From Ardenticatenia bacterium (lineage in GTDB: Bacteria; Chloroflexota; Anaerolineae; 4572-78; NAK82): 64,000 bases of DNA. The stretch's first letter is position 1. Every line of letters starts with the position of its first letter. Below, in pieces: positions 6,641-56,335 of the stretch. The stretch spans positions 2,136 to 66,135 of the forward strand of contig QEXY01000163.1 of NCBI GenBank assembly GCA_003130875.1, written 5' to 3'. The notes beneath the pieces were generated by a model that did not search any database, was not told the origin of the DNA, and was given only the letters and a program-made list of their open reading frames with translations. Both the position numbers and the translations under genes were made by a program.

Positions 6641-9600
6641 CTAACCTAATAGCTGGCGCGTCAGCTCCTGAACGTTGGCGGTGTGGTACAACAAGTCCTG
6701 ATGCAGCTGTGCAAGATCGTTCGCGTAACCCAATCGACGGGCCAGGAAAGCGAACTCTTCACTATCGGCCGGAGGCACGGTCAGGTCACGGGCGTTCCCG
6801 CGCACCACGCGCAACGCGTTGATAAGCCGTCGCAGAAAGATGAGCGCTTCGCGTAAGCGTGTATATTGCTCAGTAGAGAGGATGCCTGCCTCTGCCAGTG
6901 CCGTGAGGGCACGGCCGGTGTTCGTTTCGCGTAGAGCGGGATTATGGGCTCCATGGCTGATTTGCAGCGCCTGTACCAGATATTCCAGATCGACCAATCC
7001 ACCTGGACTGAATTTCGCATTCAGCGTACCGCCGGCCACCAAATGCCGTATTTGCCGTTCGCGCATCGCGCGCATCGCTGGCACGTCGAACGGCTCACCC
7101 TGGTACACATATGCATCGCGCAACGCCAGGATCTCTTGGGCCAGGGCAGCGTCACCGAAGAGCGGGCGCAACTTCACCAGCGCCTGTCGTTCATAGGCCC
7201 ATGCCTCGCCATCTGGTGCGAAATAGCGTCGAAACGCTTCCAAAGGCACCGCCATGCTCCCATGCTTACCATATGGCCGCAGCTGCAAATCTATGTGGAA
7301 CGTGCCCTCACGACGCGCCCGGATCGTAGTGACGAACAACTGCACTAGGCGTTCGTAGTACTCTGCCGTGCTGATGGATTGTGGTCCAGATGTCTGACCG
7401 CTGCCTTGGAATATAAACATCAGTTCAATATCCGAAGCAAAGCCCAATTCCCGTCCTCCGAGCTTGCCCAGAGCACATACGCATAACCGAGCTGGCTGTC
7501 CGTCCACGCAAAGCGGCACACCGAAACGGGTTCGCAGCTCATCTTCACACAGTCGGACGGCGGCTTCGACCACCACCTCGGCCAGATCGCTCAGCTCCGA
7601 AGAAAACTGCCCGAACTCGGTGATATGCCCCAAAATGTGGCGCATATCCACGCGAAACATCTCACGATCTTTGAAAGCGTTGAGTACGTCACGGCGCGCG
7701 GCATAATCCGGAGCGGCCTCGAGCTCGCGGCGAAGCGTCTCACACAGTTGCTCGCGCGAACGCGCCATTGCCAGGGCATCCACATTGCGCACCACCGGGA
7801 ACAGGTTGGCATGCTGCATCCGCAGGAAATCATCCCACAGAAACTCGCTCACGCCCAGCAGCCGCGCCAACGCCTCCAACACGTCGTGGCGTTCCAGCGA
7901 AGCCAGTTCGTCCGGCCAATCAGGTCGCGTGAACAGCTGAGCAAGGAACTCGCGAAAGTGGAGCAGAGCAGTCTCTGGATCAGGCGAACGTGGCAGCAGA
8001 TGCGTGAAATGTTTGATCAGCACGGTGGCCGCGCGTAGCTCGCGCTGCTTCTCGGACGAGGTGATTTTCTGCCCATGTTCGTCGGTCACATACAATACGT
8101 CACGCACACGGTTGCCGACCGACGAGACGACCACTCGGGCGATGTAAATGCGATTGAGCGCCAATGCGTTGGAGAACTCGTAGAGGAATCCCGGTGTGTC
8201 GGATGTCTCAATGGTGAGGACGGTATAGCGTGATGAGCGCGTGTTGTCAATTTCGATGTCCACCGGGTATAACGTTGGAACGGTTGTGTCTGTGTCGCGC
8301 ATCACCGCCGCGACGCGCTTCGCCAGCTCACCCCGTGCTTTGCGACGTTCGCCCGACTGCATCATGCGCAACAAAGCAGCTAGATCATCCCGGTAGCTGT
8401 GCCATAACTCGGGTCCGCCGTCTTCGCGCACCGGCTCCACGGTGAACACGTCTACTATCTTTCTAGGACCATCCAAGCGCTGTTCGAACAGAGGTGCCTT
8501 CTCTGTCCGATGCTCATCCGGCAGGGGCTCGTAGGTGAAGACATATCCATCCAGAATGCTGAAACCGTAGACAAAGAGGAGACCGCAGATAAGCGATAGC
8601 TCACCGGGATAGTCATATGCCACTATCGTGACACGCCAACGTCCCTGTTCCAAGGGCTGTGCGTCGATCTCGACCAGGTTTTCGTCGCTCAGCATCTCTG
8701 CCAAAGCCACGTGACGGGCGATCTCTGCTCGACTGAAGATGCTCGTATAGGAGGCGTCCATACGCGCCACGTGACGGTCTACATCATCTGCCGACCCAGC
8801 CGTACAAGATGGTTGTAATGCGGTCATATGTTCCCCTTCCAAGAAACGCTGATAAACACGACGGATGGCAGCACTGTGTTGCTCATAGCGCAGCAACAGC
8901 TGCCCATCCGCCCGTTCTCCGGTGAAGCCCAATCGCCTGGCGAGATACTGCAGCGCTTTCATATCCCGAGGTAATGTGGAAGTCTGACGGTACTCCATAA
9001 TCTGGAGATAGTGTTCGATCGTGCGCAGAAAGGTGTATCCCTCCAGGAGCATGCAATGATCTTCGTGGGACAACAGCTCTGCTGTCGCGAGACGGTGCAA
9101 TGCTTCCAGAGTGTTGGGGCAATACAGGTGAGGTTGCTTCGGACCGTGGATCAACTGGAGATATTGGGTCACGAACTCGACGTCCCGGATCGAACCCACC
9201 CCTAGCTTAACCTCGCCCCATTCCCGGTCTCGGGAGCGCAGAAAGGCTTCAGTGCGTCGCTTCATCGTATGGATGTCCATGCACGGGTCGCATGAGCTCC
9301 CGAGCTCGAGCAAGATCTTCTCGGCTTGGCACAGAAACTTTGTGCCGACCTCTTGGTCGCCTGCCACAAAGCGGGCTTTGAGCAGCGCTTGTTTCTCCCA
9401 GACGTGTGCATATTGCTGCATATACTCTTCATATCCACGCAGCGAGGGAACCAACAGACCACTCCGACCCCATGGGCGCAGGCGCATATCCACGCGATAG
9501 AGAAATCCATCTGCAGTCACACGCGAAAGGATGCCGATCAGGCACTCGCCCAGCCGCTGGTAGGAAAAAGGATCCCCCTCGGTCACAAAGAGCAGATCGA

Positions 9601-51773: not shown

Positions 51774-52312
51774 AGGCTTCTGTTCTCCCGATGATGCGCT
51801 AGTCACCTGACCGTTTTACCGCGACTGGTTGATCGGCCCAGGTTCTCCAGTAAAAAAATTGGTCGTTCTCAATCCATTTACAAGGGGATGACCGCATGCC
51901 GATCAACCGGTTGTATCATACATGGGAAAGGGAAAAATAAGAAAACTGAGACCGATTCAATGCGTCGCCTAGCTCTGAACCATCCAGCCCCACATCCACG
52001 ACGGGTGCGCGCTCATCGCCCGCCAGAGGTTGGTGGCATCGTACCACTATCCGGGCGAGAGGTGTAATTATGGATGGTACAAAGGTCGACTCGAGTGTAC
52101 GTTGCAGATTGCCTGTTTGGCCCACCACAAGCGCGTCATTCCAATTGACTGGACGGTGGGTTCGATATCTTGCCTGTCCCCACTCCGTTGATCGCTTATC
52201 CGTAAACAAACTATCAGAGAGTTAGAAAATGTTCATTTGCGCAGGCCACATGGGTGGGCTAGAATGCGCACGCCCGATCAGGACCGCTACCGATCAATGG
52301 AGGAACCGAGGC

Positions 52313-53866
52313 ATGGGCCGTCGTGTAATGGGGATTATAGCTGGGAGCGTGCTTCTCTGCTTGCTCTTGAGCGGCACAGCGGCTGCCGCCGAGACCTCTG
52401 AGACGTCGTCCCACAACGCTCTGTCGCCGCTGATACTTCTCACCTTCCTTCTGCCCGCTGGTCTCATTTTGCTCAGCGCCGCTGCCTTCCCAGAGGATCA
52501 GGCGGCAGAGGCGGCTGCCGGCGGCGTGGTCAGCTGGGGAATGGCATGCCTGGCTTACTTCGCGGTCGGTTTCGCCTTTCAGTTTGGCGGCATCGCCATC
52601 GTGTATCCATCCCCTGATCTTGCCGGGCTGTACTGGGAATACTCGCCGCTCGACGTTGCGTGGGGCAGCGGTTGGGGGATGCTGGGTCTGCGGGGATTCC
52701 TGATGGCAGGCCCAGCGGCCACGCCGGGTGCCTTGACCCTCTTTCTTGCGCAACTGCCATTGCTGGGTGTGGCCACGCTAATCGTCCACTTCGCCACATG
52801 GCGCACCACCCACCGCTGGCTGACGCTGCCGCTTGGGCTGCTGATGGGCAGCGTCGCATATCCCTGGTTGGGCAACTGGATTTGGGGAGGCGGCTGGCTG
52901 GCAAACCTCGGCCTGACGATGGCCTACGGACATGGCCTGGTGGACGCTGCCGGCAGCGGACAGGTGGCCCTGTGCGGCGCCGTGGGTGCATTCGCCGCAG
53001 TGTCCGTGTTCCGCGGACGGCCCATTGCGCTACCAGAGAGTCGACTCGATGCCCCGCTGCCACGCGCCCACCTGCCTCTGCTCGGCTGGAGCGGCGCCCT
53101 GTTGATGACCATCGGATGGATGGCCACCTCTCCGATGGCCCATTTTCCCACAGCCACCAACGTCGTGCTGCCCGTGATGGCGGTTAACATGGTCCTGGCA
53201 GCTTTCGGCACCGCTTTTGCTGCCGGTCTGTACACATGGCTCGTTTCCGCGCGGTTGGACGTCCTCATGATAGGCCGTGCCATGGCCGCTGGGCTGGCAG
53301 CGACGGCGGCAGGGGCTCCGTTCCTGCCCGCTTGGGGCGCCTTGACCGTCGGCTTGGTGAGCGGATTGTTGTTGCCCTGGCTTTTGTTCTGGTTCGAAAA
53401 TCGCTTAAACCTGGGGAACGCCGCTGCCGCACTTGCTGTTTTTGGCATACCGGCGGCCTTGGGATTGTTGCTGCCGGGGGTGTTGGCCGATGGACGTCAC
53501 GGCGCCGGATGGAATCGCATCGGGTTCGATGCCTACCTGGGAACGCCCGGGCAGGGTGTGTCAGGCCTCTGGGTGGCAGAGGGATTGACGCCGGACTGGC
53601 CCGGTCAAATGCTCGCGCAGCTCATCGGATTGGCGGCCATCCTGGTTTGGTGCTTTGCAGTTTTCTGGACGCCTCTGAGCATCGCGCGCGCGACAGTGCT
53701 CGCCTGGAGACGCAGTGGTATTGAATTCGGCACCCCACCTCCGCCGGTGCCGTTCGAGGCAGACCCTCCCTCGATGCCTGTGGAAGCGTCGCGGTTCGAC
53801 CCTGTTTCAGAACGGGGAGAGGTCTGCGGCACGGACACGCAGAACGACGAGGCGAACCAGCGTTGA
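52313..53866 (+). CDS. amt: Amt-family membrane protein with degenerate pore residues
   Basis: [27 protein letters not shown] and LAATAAG segments align with AmtB, but both pore His positions are substituted. Confidence 0.8.
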
Positions 53867-54960
53867 TGGCGCATTTGCTGCCTAAGATACCCCTCTTCTG
53901 GTGCTTTCACCGTTTTGGATGGCCCGTCCTGCTTCCGTTCAGCCTGGTGGTGAGCGTCAGCTTCCGCTGCAATTCGCGTTGTCAGACGTGCGGAGTGTGG
54001 CGCAAGCCCTCGGATGATATGAGTGCCGCCGAGTGGGAGCAAGTCTTCGCCCGAATCGGACGTGCGCCGGTGTATATCACCTTCACCGGAGGAGAGCCGT
54101 TCCTGCGTCGCGATCTGGGCGAAATCGTTTTGAGTGCTTATCGGCATTGCCGGCCCTCGATGATCACCATCCCCACCAACGGACTGCTCACCGAGCGCAT
54201 TGTTGAACAGGTTCATCATATCTGCACAGAAGCTCCCCAAACCCAGATTGGCATCAACCTCTCACTGGACGAAGCAGAAGAGCGACACGATGTGATCCGA
54301 GGTGTGCCGGGCAATTGGCAGCGCGCTATGCAGACGTGGCAGGCGCTCAAGGAGATGCAACCCCGCTATCCCAACCTGCTCTTGAGCGTACACACAGTCA
54401 TCAGCAAATTCAATGTGGAGCGTTTTTACGAGCTCTATGCTGCCCTGCAGGCGCTGCAACCGGACAGTTACATCACGGAGATTGCCGAGGAGCGCGTGGA
54501 ACTGGACACCGTCGGGTGGCAGATCACCCCTTCGGCGGCGGAATATGCGCCTTTGGCGGACTTCCTGACCCAGCAGGCAAGCCAGGCAACCCAGCGCAGC
54601 AGAGCACGCGTGACCCAGGCGTTTCGAGCAGAGTATTACCAGCTCGCCAAGCGCATTTTGTTCGAGCAGCGTCAGGTGATCCCCTGCTATGCTGGCTGGG
54701 CGAGTGGCCATATCGCCCCCAATGGCGATGTCTGGAGCTGCTGCATCCGTGCCGAATCGGTGGGCAATCTGCGCGAGCACGGCTACGACCTGCGCACCAT
54801 CTGGCGAGGAGAGCGGATGAGGAAATTGCGCCGCAGCATCTACCAGCGGGAATGCGCATGTCCGATGGCGAATGCCAGTTATGCAAACATGCTCCTTCAC
54901 TGGCCCACATTGCAACGGGTGATGCGGCGTCTGTGGCCCCGGCACATATCCAAGGAGTGA
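53866..54960 (+). CDS. Radical SAM protein with SPASM/twitch domain
   Basis: [19 protein letters not shown] and CYAGW...GDVWSCC...C.CP. TGATG overlap with the amt stop. Confidence 0.9.
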
Positions 54961-55067: not shown

Positions 55068-55490
55068 ATGAGCGAGCTGCAAAAAGATGATCTGCGAACC
55101 TGGCTGCCCTTCCCATTCGAGCAAGCTGTCGAGCGCACCAAAGAAGCTCTGAAGGTTGAGGGGTTTGGTGTTCTGACCGAGATAGATGTACAGGCAACAT
55201 TGAAAAAGAAGCTGGATGCCGATTTCCGCAAGTACGTGATCCTGGGGGCGTGTAATCCCCCTCTCGCCCACCGGGCATTTCAGGCGGAGCTGGAAATCGG
55301 GCTCCTGATGCCGTGCAATGTCATCGTATATGAAGAGGGCACAGGCAGTGTCGTCTCCATTATGGACCCTGCGCTGATGAGCAAGTGGTTGGATAACCCG
55401 GCGATGATCTCTTTAGCGGATGAGGCGCGCGCTAAGTTAGAGCGCGTGATCCATTCCCTTCGCGCTGATGTTCAGGGAGCTGCTGAATGA
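55068..55490 (+). CDS. DUF302-domain protein
   Basis: EGFGVLTEIDVQATLKKKL...ILGACNP...IGLLMPCNVIVYE. Confidence 0.9.
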   Translation: MSELQKDDLRTWLPFPFEQAVERTKEALKVEGFGVLTEIDVQATLKKKLDADFRKYVILGACNPPLAHRAFQAELEIGLLMPCNVIVYEEGTGSVVSIMDPALMSKWLDNPAMISLADEARAKLERVIHSLRADVQGAAE

Positions 55491-56335
55491 CAACTGCGCC
55501 CCAGCCTCCGAGCGAAAGTGCTTCGCAGAGCGCTCCAAAAGCATCCGATATCAACCGCATCGATCACATCGTGGCCGTGCTGAGCGGCAAGGGCGGTGTG
55601 GGCAAGTCCATTGTGAGCAGCTTGCTGGCGGTGTCCCTGCGTCGCAAGGGCCATCGGGTGGGCATTCTGGATGCCGACATCACCGGACCCAGCATTCCCA
55701 AGATGTTCCTTTCCCAAGCGATTCCGCTGGGCAGTGACCCATTGGGCATCCCACCGGCGGTGAGCCGTACTGGCATCAAGCTGATGTCCATCAATCTGTT
55801 GCTGCGGAGTGAGCGTGATGCGGTCATCTGGCGGGGTCCGCTGATCGGGCGCGCCATCCAGCAATTCTGGACGGATGTCGTTTGGGGCGAGCTGGACTAT
55901 CTGATCGTGGACCTCCCGCCGGGCACCTCGGATGCCTCGCTGACCGTGATGCAATTCCTGCCCTTGAGCGGCGCCCTCTTGGTGACAGCGCCCCAAGGAT
56001 TGGCGGGCATGGTGGTGCACAAAGCGGCTCAAATGGCCGAGATGCTGCACGTGCCTTTGCTGGGGCTGGTGGAGAACATGGGCTATTTCGTCTGCCCCGA
56101 TAATGGCAAGGCATATGAGGTCTTCGGCCCCAGCCATGCCGAAGAGCTGGCTCAAACCTTGGGCATTCCTTTTCTGGGACGTCTGCCGATCAAACCGGAG
56201 CTGACCTTGCTGAGTGATACAGGGCGCATCGAGGAATATCCGGCTGAGGAGTTTGCGCCCATCGTGGCCCACATTGAAGCGAGCGCGCAAGCACCGCGCC
56301 TGCCACCCTTCTCGATCGACCTGGGAGGCCTTTGA
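55487..56335 (+). CDS. mrp: Mrp/ApbC/NBP35 Fe-S cluster carrier ATPase
   Basis: SGKGGVGKS, DADITGPS, WRGP, DLPPGTSD and ENM..FVCPDN. Confidence 0.93.
   Translation: MTTAPQPPSESASQSAPKASDINRIDHIVAVLSGKGGVGKSIVSSLLAVSLRRKGHRVGILDADITGPSIPKMFLSQAIPLGSDPLGIPPAVSRTGIKLMSINLLLRSERDAVIWRGPLIGRAIQQFWTDVVWGELDYLIVDLPPGTSDASLTVMQFLPLSGALLVTAPQGLAGMVVHKAAQMAEMLHVPLLGLVENMGYFVCPDNGKAYEVFGPSHAEELAQTLGIPFLGRLPIKPELTLLSDTGRIEEYPAEEFAPIVAHIEASAQAPRLPPFSIDLGGL

Follow-up and report, generated by a model that had tools for sequence, protein, structure and literature searches.

Can a membrane protein with the fold of an ammonium transporter still carry ammonium once the histidine pair and the phenylalanine gate of its pore have been replaced? 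This question is raised by a gene at positions 52313-53866 (+ strand) of a 64,000-nucleotide stretch of DNA from an Ardenticatenia bacterium (assembly GCA_003130875.1, contig QEXY01000163.1, positions 2,136 to 66,135, forward strand), which at its full length is called the window below. The gene reads stop-free as a protein of 517 amino acids, here P0001. The twin-His pair is regarded as a hallmark of conduction in the Amt/Mep/Rh superfamily, to which the vertebrate Rh30 proteins are, to our knowledge, the only well-known natural exceptions. An initial annotation, made from the sequence alone, had noted the missing residues and proposed either a non-transporting sensor or a channel for another small substrate, possibly CO or CO2. 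We find that P0001 belongs to a large Chloroflexota family in which the pore has been dismantled in a recognizable order, and that it probably moves ammonium by the known route no longer. The best reading, which we hold tentatively, is a non-transporting protein that binds at the outer site and serves as a sensor or scaffold.

Fold and pore residues of the Amt-like protein

By sequence and predicted fold, P0001 is a member of the Amt/Mep/Rh superfamily with 11 transmembrane (TM) helices. It scores 107.3 bits (E = 1e-30) against Pfam PF00909, above the cut-off of 23.2, and 98.3 bits against NCBIfam TIGR00836 ('amt'), whose cut-off of 343.3 leaves it outside that family. Foldseek was run with an AlphaFold2 model of the protein (predicted local distance difference test, pLDDT, 75.6; predicted template-modelling score, pTM, 0.78). 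The top matches were Ks-Amt5 (6eu6), AmtB and Af-Amt1, with Sd-Amt1 also found, at target-normalised template-modelling scores of 0.75-0.81.

Residues were mapped onto E. coli AmtB in three ways, which agreed with one another: pairwise HMMER alignment with Ks-Amt5 (6eu6) and Af-Amt1 (2b2f), comparison of a 32-sequence family profile with all PDB chains, and a MAFFT alignment of 237 sequences including E. coli AmtB. The E. coli AmtB sequence that set the numbering carries the expected letter at 13 of 13 known positions, and the PDB alignments are concordant with it. In what follows, three-letter names without further label denote residues of P0001 and one-letter names those of AmtB. The gene and the residues that matter for its pore are listed below:

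52313-53866, + strand: the Amt-fold membrane protein, 517 amino acids, of a pore-dismantled Chloroflexota family (PF00909, Foldseek)
52454-52456, + strand: Pro48, at Ks-Amt5 Gln24 (N2-site ligand) and AmtB T24; Pro in 201 of 220 family members
52760-52762, + strand: Leu150, at the Phe-gate residue F107 (profile and MAFFT alignments)
52883-52885, + strand: Trp191, the outer S1-site Trp W148, kept (in NWIWGGGW); Trp in 187 of 220 family members
52943-52945, + strand: Asp211, equivalent to D160, kept; invariant in 231 of 231 aligned sequences
52967-52969, + strand: Ala219, at the first pore histidine H168; A, F, H, N, V or G in the family
53117-53140, + strand: the GWMATSPMA segment, with Trp269 (W212, kept), Thr272 (F215, gate lost), Ser273 (N216) and Ala276 (S219), from the alignments
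53276-53278, + strand: Arg322, at the cytoplasmic exit (AmtB S263, Af-Amt1 Ser-251, Sd-Amt1 Asn-269); Arg in 209 of 220 members (87 of 95 representatives in the non-redundant set)
53417-53419, + strand: Asn369, at D310; Asp in 198 of 220 members, Asn only in P0001 and its three closest relatives
53441-53443, + strand: Phe377, at the second pore histidine H318; F, H, Y or L in the family

All three alignments therefore bear out what the initial annotation had read from the sequence: histidine is absent from both canonical positions (Ala219, Phe377), the Phe gate is lost (Leu150, and Thr272 within GWMATS), and the conserved Asp and the W-GGGW motif are kept (Asp211; Trp191 in NWIWGGGW). Further replacements are Ala146 for F103, Ala332 for T273 and Ser55 for Y32. 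Measured against E. coli AmtB and Af-Amt1, the protein retains the 11-TM fold, D160, W148, W212, the glycine scaffolds and a signal-peptide-like N-terminus, whereas F103, F107, F215, S219, H168, H318, T273, Y32 and S263 are replaced, the C-terminus is different and there is no glnK. At the S1 recruitment site (W148 and S219), Trp191 remains and S219 has given way to Ala276, a position where the loop alignment is less certain than elsewhere. The Tyr/Ser lining of the exit (Y32/S263) is absent, with Ser55 and Arg322 in its place; the alignment at Arg322 is gap-free around a shared AGL(V/A), and the Arg there, larger than the matching Asn-269 of Sd-Amt1, may occlude the exit. In two family members (n=2, possibly an alignment error) the Arg322 position holds Ala and the D310 position Arg; such an apparent relocation would be in keeping with the two sites lying close together in space.

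These substitutions are neither chance nor sequencing error, since Ala/Val/Ile at 219 and Phe/Leu at 377 are found in 71 of 71 members of the protein's own clade, and ratios of nonsynonymous to synonymous substitution (dN/dS) of 0.12-0.17 against five relatives indicate purifying selection. Because the twin-His pair and the Phe gate are absent, P0001 probably does not function as a transporter of the AmtB type. Engineered AmtB offers the closest experimental comparison: the H168A/H318A variant binds NH4+ near S1 and does not transport it (PMC7447429; PMC3647058). The H168A/H318A and S219A/H168A/H318A variants carry the same twin-His and S219 changes in an otherwise intact pore, whereas P0001 has in addition lost the gate and gained Arg322, and has evolved under selection over at least hundreds of species-level divergences.

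One could still suppose that the protein carries NH4+ by a His-independent route and is simply the normal uptake system of its host. It is the only homologue found in a PF00909 search of the source genome (3.49 Mb, 96% complete), it keeps Trp191 and Asp211, and its database label is 'ammonium transporter'. Nevertheless we regard this as improbable, given that all elements of the two-lane mechanism save D160 are gone (twin-His, Phe gate, S219, T273), that a positive Arg stands in the exit, and that the AmtB mutational data and the TIGR00836 score (98 vs 343 bits) point the other way.

The family and the order of its losses

A word-indexed search yielded at least 358 relatives of P0001, and almost all of them come from Anaerolineae, Ardenticatenia, Caldilineae or unclassified Chloroflexota. 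When 1.84 billion representatives were searched exhaustively with HMMER, 119 clusters (50% identity) came out at E <= 1e-30, and a survey with a single genome for each species turned up relatives in 324 species, the best 80 of which are all Chloroflexota. A FastTree phylogeny of 237 sequences, with its root among AmtB-type transporters, shows the divergent family as monophyletic (support 1.0), and its neighbours are sequences that have all pore motifs together with the Gln/Glu/Asn receptor signature (as defined in PMC11152129). Compared with the PDB, the family profile scores 110 bits for Ks-Amt5 (6eu6) and 105 for Sd-Amt1 (8qj3), as against 58 for Af-Amt1 and 43 for AmtB. On this phylogeny the family is sister to, or branched from, the receptor-type (Ks-Amt5/Sd-Amt1-like) Amts.

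The ammonium receptors (AmR) Ks-Amt5 (6eu6) and Sd-Amt1 (8qj3, 8qj4, 8qpf) are thus the best sequence and structural match, the neighbours in the tree, and alike in fold. The likeness may extend to the exit. In transporters the exit Ser lines a wide funnel, and Asn-269 of Sd-Amt1 'largely blocks' it (PMC11152129); by analogy, Arg322 at the same position would narrow or block the pore of P0001, so that net transport would likewise be missing. On the other hand, AmR retain the Trp/Ser site, the Phe gate and the twin-His pair, whereas P0001 has no intact selectivity path. They bind NH4+ at the internal sites N1/N2 (Gln24, Glu31, Asn47, Asp50, Thr109 and Thr112 in Ks-Amt5; PMC11152129), where P0001 and its family have Pro48, Ser/Ala, Ala/Gly, Ala, Leu156 and His159/Val, with Ser55 at one site. 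Finally, AmR are fused to a kinase or a diguanylate cyclase, unlike P0001, which has no output domain.

Within the family, the histidine pair occurs in several states: His+His, Asn+His, Phe+Tyr, Phe+Phe, Gly/Ala+Val/Ser, and Ala/Val/Ile+Phe/Leu, the last being that of P0001's own clade and the most derived. All 26 members that keep both histidines already carry Arg at the exit and are without the Phe-Phe gate (26/26 in each case), so the loss of the gate and the gain of Arg preceded the loss of the histidines, which took place repeatedly. By column entropy over 95 non-redundant members, the pore positions belong to the most variable ones (H318 in the 90th percentile, N216 in the 91st, F215 in the 79th, S219 in the 76th, H168 in the 67th) and others are fixed (Asp211 in the 0th, Pro48 in the 7th, Arg322 in the 8th, the D310 position in the 11th), as would be expected had the central pore ceased to be a working part. 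Size compensation between residues 219 and 377 was considered and rejected: across the A+F, H+H, F+Y and G+V pairs, the summed side-chain volumes are not conserved.

The near-invariance of Arg322 and of Pro48, the multiple replacements of the twin-His pair, the lack of the N1/N2 ligands, the size of the family and the standing of P0001 as sole Amt homologue of its genome are points absent from the initial annotation. A 2023 review and a 2024 paper on the receptors (PMC11152129) take the twin-His pair as conserved throughout. Among titles and abstracts in the literature we found none on a bacterial His-less Amt family or on an exit Arg substitution, full texts not having been searched for either.

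Genome content and the function of the family

Among 151 Anaerolineae genomes, each at least 85% complete, PF00909 scores are bimodal. A full-motif Amt (> 320 bits) is present in 46, about 21 of which also have the divergent type; the divergent type alone (75-232 bits) is found in 70, so that it is, in roughly half of the Anaerolineae sampled, the one Amt-type protein present; and 35, about a quarter, have no Amt homologue whatever. True P-II (>= 86 bits) occurs in 20 of the 151, and in 19 of these 20 a full-motif Amt is present, as a rule next to the P-II gene (odds ratio 73, p = 1e-10), whereas at most one of the divergent-only genomes has P-II. With P-II nearly confined to full-motif genomes, the divergent family therefore works without GlnK, and nitrogen sensing in most of the class apparently proceeds without an Amt-GlnK pair.

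The window itself agrees with the survey. There is no P-II gene adjacent to the Amt-like gene, as the initial annotation had observed, and none in the neighbourhoods of 80 related loci (8 kb on either side). The source genome has no true P-II; its single P-II-like open reading frame (ORF) reaches 28 bits to PF00543. This ORF (G000:C53:10710-11030; L082 1486-1848, minus strand) encodes 120 amino acids, and 13 nt of it overlap the end of a gene for a 399-residue cation/proton-antiporter-like protein. Rather than GlnK, its product is probably a P-II-like regulator associated with a transporter; many genomes of the class have comparable ORFs with weak P-II similarity.

Outside the pore, the following parts of P0001 can be recognized:

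52313-52390, + strand: N-terminal signal peptide or TM0, 26 residues and then E; a hydrophobic helix at residues 2-25 in the model
53486-53620, + strand: enlarged TM10-TM11 loop, a ten-residue opening followed by GQGVSG and DWPGQ elements; about 20 amino acids longer than in AmtB
53702-53746, + strand: juxtamembrane motif AW-x-R-x-G-(L/I)-E-F-G-x-P-P, predicted cytoplasmic; key residues kept in 19-28 of 32 aligned family members
53747-53863, + strand: Pro/acidic tail, residues 479-517; weakly conserved, pLDDT < 50, gapped in relatives

The AAA-E site at the N-terminus resembles that of the cleaved AmtB signal peptide, which suggests that P0001 may be cleaved as well. In the TM10-TM11 loop, which by analogy with AmtB topology would be periplasmic, G397, W400, N401, G415, V416 and G418 are invariant, and the model forms short beta strands there with pLDDT 83-93. 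The AWxRxGLEFGxPP motif stands where the canonical Amt C-terminal region would be, and beyond it lies the Pro/acidic C-terminus that the initial annotation had described.

From these patterns we tentatively infer non-conduction, ligand binding and a signalling role for P0001. Early in the family, the Phe gate was lost, the exit Ser/Asn turned into Arg, and the N1/N2 ligands disappeared. The two pore histidines then became dispensable and gave way many times over to varied residues, with the outer Trp191/Asp211, the enlarged loop and the AWxRxGLEFGxPP motif retained. The present-day protein would be a trimeric membrane protein whose outer vestibule binds ammonium or a comparable small cation, which performs no AmtB-type NH3/H+ translocation, and which may report through its cytoplasmic motif to a partner in the cytoplasm without involvement of GlnK. 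In functional terms, the closest analogy is with the vertebrate Rh30 proteins RhCE and RhD, which are natural Amt/Rh-fold proteins without the twin-His pair. RhCE has its pore closed off at a hydrophobic constriction, and RhCE and RhD are thought to be scaffold or recruitment proteins (10.1101/2022.02.10.479914). The analogy has its limits: Rh30 belongs to the eukaryotic Rh branch and its loss was independent, and RhCE sits in a heterotrimer with the transporting RhAG, whereas the bacterial protein is usually the sole Amt of its host.

Several findings weigh against a sensor or scaffold. There is no fused output domain: after TM11 only a 54-residue tail follows, Pfam finds no domain besides PF00909, and among 10 longer relatives it likewise finds nothing beyond PF00909 and no fused transducer. 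Clustering of the flanking ORFs in the 80 neighbourhoods gave no conserved signalling partner, and the flanks look like housekeeping genes. At the S1 site, Ala276 in place of S219 would weaken binding, the AmtB S219A/H168A/H318A triple mutant having no binding current (PMC7447429), and since the N1/N2 ligands are absent, any sensing would need a different site. Furthermore, the divergent and full-motif types share genomes more rarely than would be expected (odds ratio 0.42, Fisher p = 0.019, calculated without phylogenetic correction), and this anti-correlation, together with the divergent type being the only Amt in 70 of 151 genomes, hints at functional overlap with real transporters.

That overlap leads to the main rival, in which the family facilitates the passage of neutral NH3, or of some other small and uncharged molecule, while Arg322 and the aromatic residues exclude NH4+, K+ and H+ in the manner of the aromatic/arginine (ar/R) filter of aquaporins. 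Besides the distribution of the sole homologue, its anti-correlation with full-motif Amts and its occurrence in genomes without true P-II, this proposal draws on the smaller gate residues (Leu150, Thr272), on the hydrophobic pore lining, and on the NH4+-recruiting outer Trp and Asp, which are kept. Single-His AmtB mutants leak K+ (PMC7447429), so an Arg that keeps cations out would be sensible in a pore without His, and NH3 facilitation, being equilibrative and electroneutral, would need no GlnK plug. However, the lining differs strongly between subclades (A+F, F+Y, N+H, G+V), which is unexpected for one substrate path, and neither ammonia nor methylamine is conducted by AmtB variants changed at both histidines (PMC3647058). 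Phe or Tyr at the H318 position together with the exit Arg may simply plug the pore, and the 35 of 151 genomes without any Amt imply that no Amt-type uptake is needed in the class. On balance we consider an NH3 facilitator somewhat unlikely.

The idea of a 'pure gas channel' was once raised for AmtB and later rejected. It is doubtful that the family constitutes a new functional class of this kind, with a His-free, gate-free hydrophobic pore and an Arg guard like the aquaporin aromatic/arginine filter that would let NH3 through and exclude NH4+, K+ and H+. If it did, many Anaerolineae would possess a GlnK-independent, non-electrogenic route for ammonia. The family is a natural experiment on the role of each pore element. 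The 'ammonium transporter' labels that its members carry in Chloroflexota metagenomes, and the nitrogen-cycling inferences drawn from them, are probably wrong, which bears on the acquisition or sensing of ammonium by these bacteria, abundant in sludge and sediment.

Neighbouring genes, translation start and upstream DNA

The initial annotation had looked to the neighbours of the gene for its function and had proposed a neighbourhood survey of His-less Amts. Besides the comparison of flanking ORFs in the 80 loci described above, which brought out no conserved partner, the carbon monoxide dehydrogenase (CODH), BldC-HMA and PAS-LuxR proteins of the window were searched for there by tblastn. The features next to and upstream of the Amt-like gene are the following:

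52237-52265, + strand: promoter-like block TTGCGC-17 nt-TAGAAT; near-invariant in five relatives, down to 67% protein identity
52299-52304, + strand: Shine-Dalgarno sequence GGAGGA, read directly from the sequence; the ATG begins 8 nt on
53864-53868, + strand: TGATG stop/start overlap, in which TGA (53864-53866) shares its A with ATG (53866-53868)
53866-54960, + strand: radical S-adenosylmethionine (SAM)/SPASM enzyme (PF04055 and PF13186), here predicted to be co-transcribed

A role as a CO or CO2 channel for the neighbouring CODH/acetyl-CoA synthase (ACS) had been suggested by the CODH/ACS genes that lie 2-6 kb upstream in the window. Some Rh proteins have indeed been proposed as CO2 conductors. 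These genes are on the opposite strand, though, with two regulator genes between, and no CODH was found in any of the 80 loci (0/80), including that of a relative 90% identical; BldC-HMA was likewise found in 0/80 and PAS-LuxR in 1/80 (a single distant LuxR-type match). Because the CODH linkage is not conserved, the suggested gas channel loses its basis, and with the family widespread regardless of CODH context we judge it highly improbable. Of the two functions first proposed for the protein, a sensor thus remains reasonable and a mode of action unlike that of AmtB is upheld, whereas the CO/CO2 channel is not.

The TGATG coupling to the radical SAM gene, also pointed out in the initial annotation, is real in the protein's own lineage and is not a property of the family: the gene lies 3' of the Amt-like gene in 6 of the 80 loci (five close relatives and one 47% identical). 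The enzyme itself meets no NCBIfam model at its cut-off, the best being NirJ2 with 68 bits vs 500. It has 5273 homologues at E <= 1e-20, and its orthologues, 65-76% identical across Chloroflexota (Anaerolineae, Caldilineae), elsewhere adjoin a set of aldehyde ferredoxin oxidoreductase (AFOR), ThiS and aldehyde dehydrogenase genes, B12-radical SAM genes, or MutS2. It is unusually conserved and looks like an unassigned Chloroflexota radical SAM enzyme of a housekeeping kind.

A further option is that the protein transports or senses some other substrate, such as a metal or cofactor precursor, with a functional link to the radical SAM/SPASM-DUF302-MrpORP genes. The translational coupling speaks for it, as do the retention of an Amt-like/radical SAM/DUF302/Mrp/hypE/hypD block in three related loci (L003, L004 and L009) and the in-frame fusion of the two genes in L009. 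Set against the small share of loci with this neighbour, the unrelated contexts of the orthologues, and an L009 fusion that arose by a deletion within the unconserved tail in a single low-coverage metagenome-assembled genome (MAG) and may be an assembly error, these points leave the option improbable as well.

Most flanking genes in the 80 neighbourhoods are on the opposite strand. Clusters recognized there by eye, without Pfam confirmation, include a LigT-like 2H phosphoesterase (33 loci), an RsfS-like protein (18 loci), a LOG/TIGR00725-like protein and a phosphoribosyltransferase.

The start of the Amt-like gene appears well placed. An alternative in-frame ATG exists at 52229, 5' of the promoter-like block; since the block lies downstream of that ATG, 52313 is taken as the true start and 52229 is unlikely. 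The block, about 50 nt upstream of the ATG, was not called by a consensus promoter scan; the intergenic DNA around it is unalignable among the same five relatives in which it is near-invariant. A TGCGCA direct repeat spans the block (the two together lie within 52237-52282), with one copy overlapping the -35 element and the other directly after the -10 element, and block and repeat together may form an operator for some regulator. An Rfam scan of 500 nt upstream gave nothing at E <= 5, neither a riboswitch nor another RNA. Upstream of 66 family genes, TnrA/GlnR, NtcA, actinobacterial GlnR, NrpR and sigma-54 boxes showed no enrichment over shuffled sequences; a loose sigma-54 pattern was marginal, with 9 occurrences against a shuffle mean of 3 and maximum of 9.

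Downstream of the radical SAM gene, 55068-56335 holds genes for a DUF302 protein and a MrpORP/ApbC-type Fe-S carrier ATPase, whose ends overlap at 55487-55490. In L009, from a MAG whose Amt-like protein is 90% identical to P0001, a tail deletion at 8740-8840 joins the Amt-like and radical SAM ORFs in frame into 899 amino acids, either naturally or as a possible assembly artefact of this low-coverage single MAG. Beyond the DUF302 and MrpORP genes lies a convergent hypE-hypD-hypF group, and the block is kept in L003, L004 and L009.

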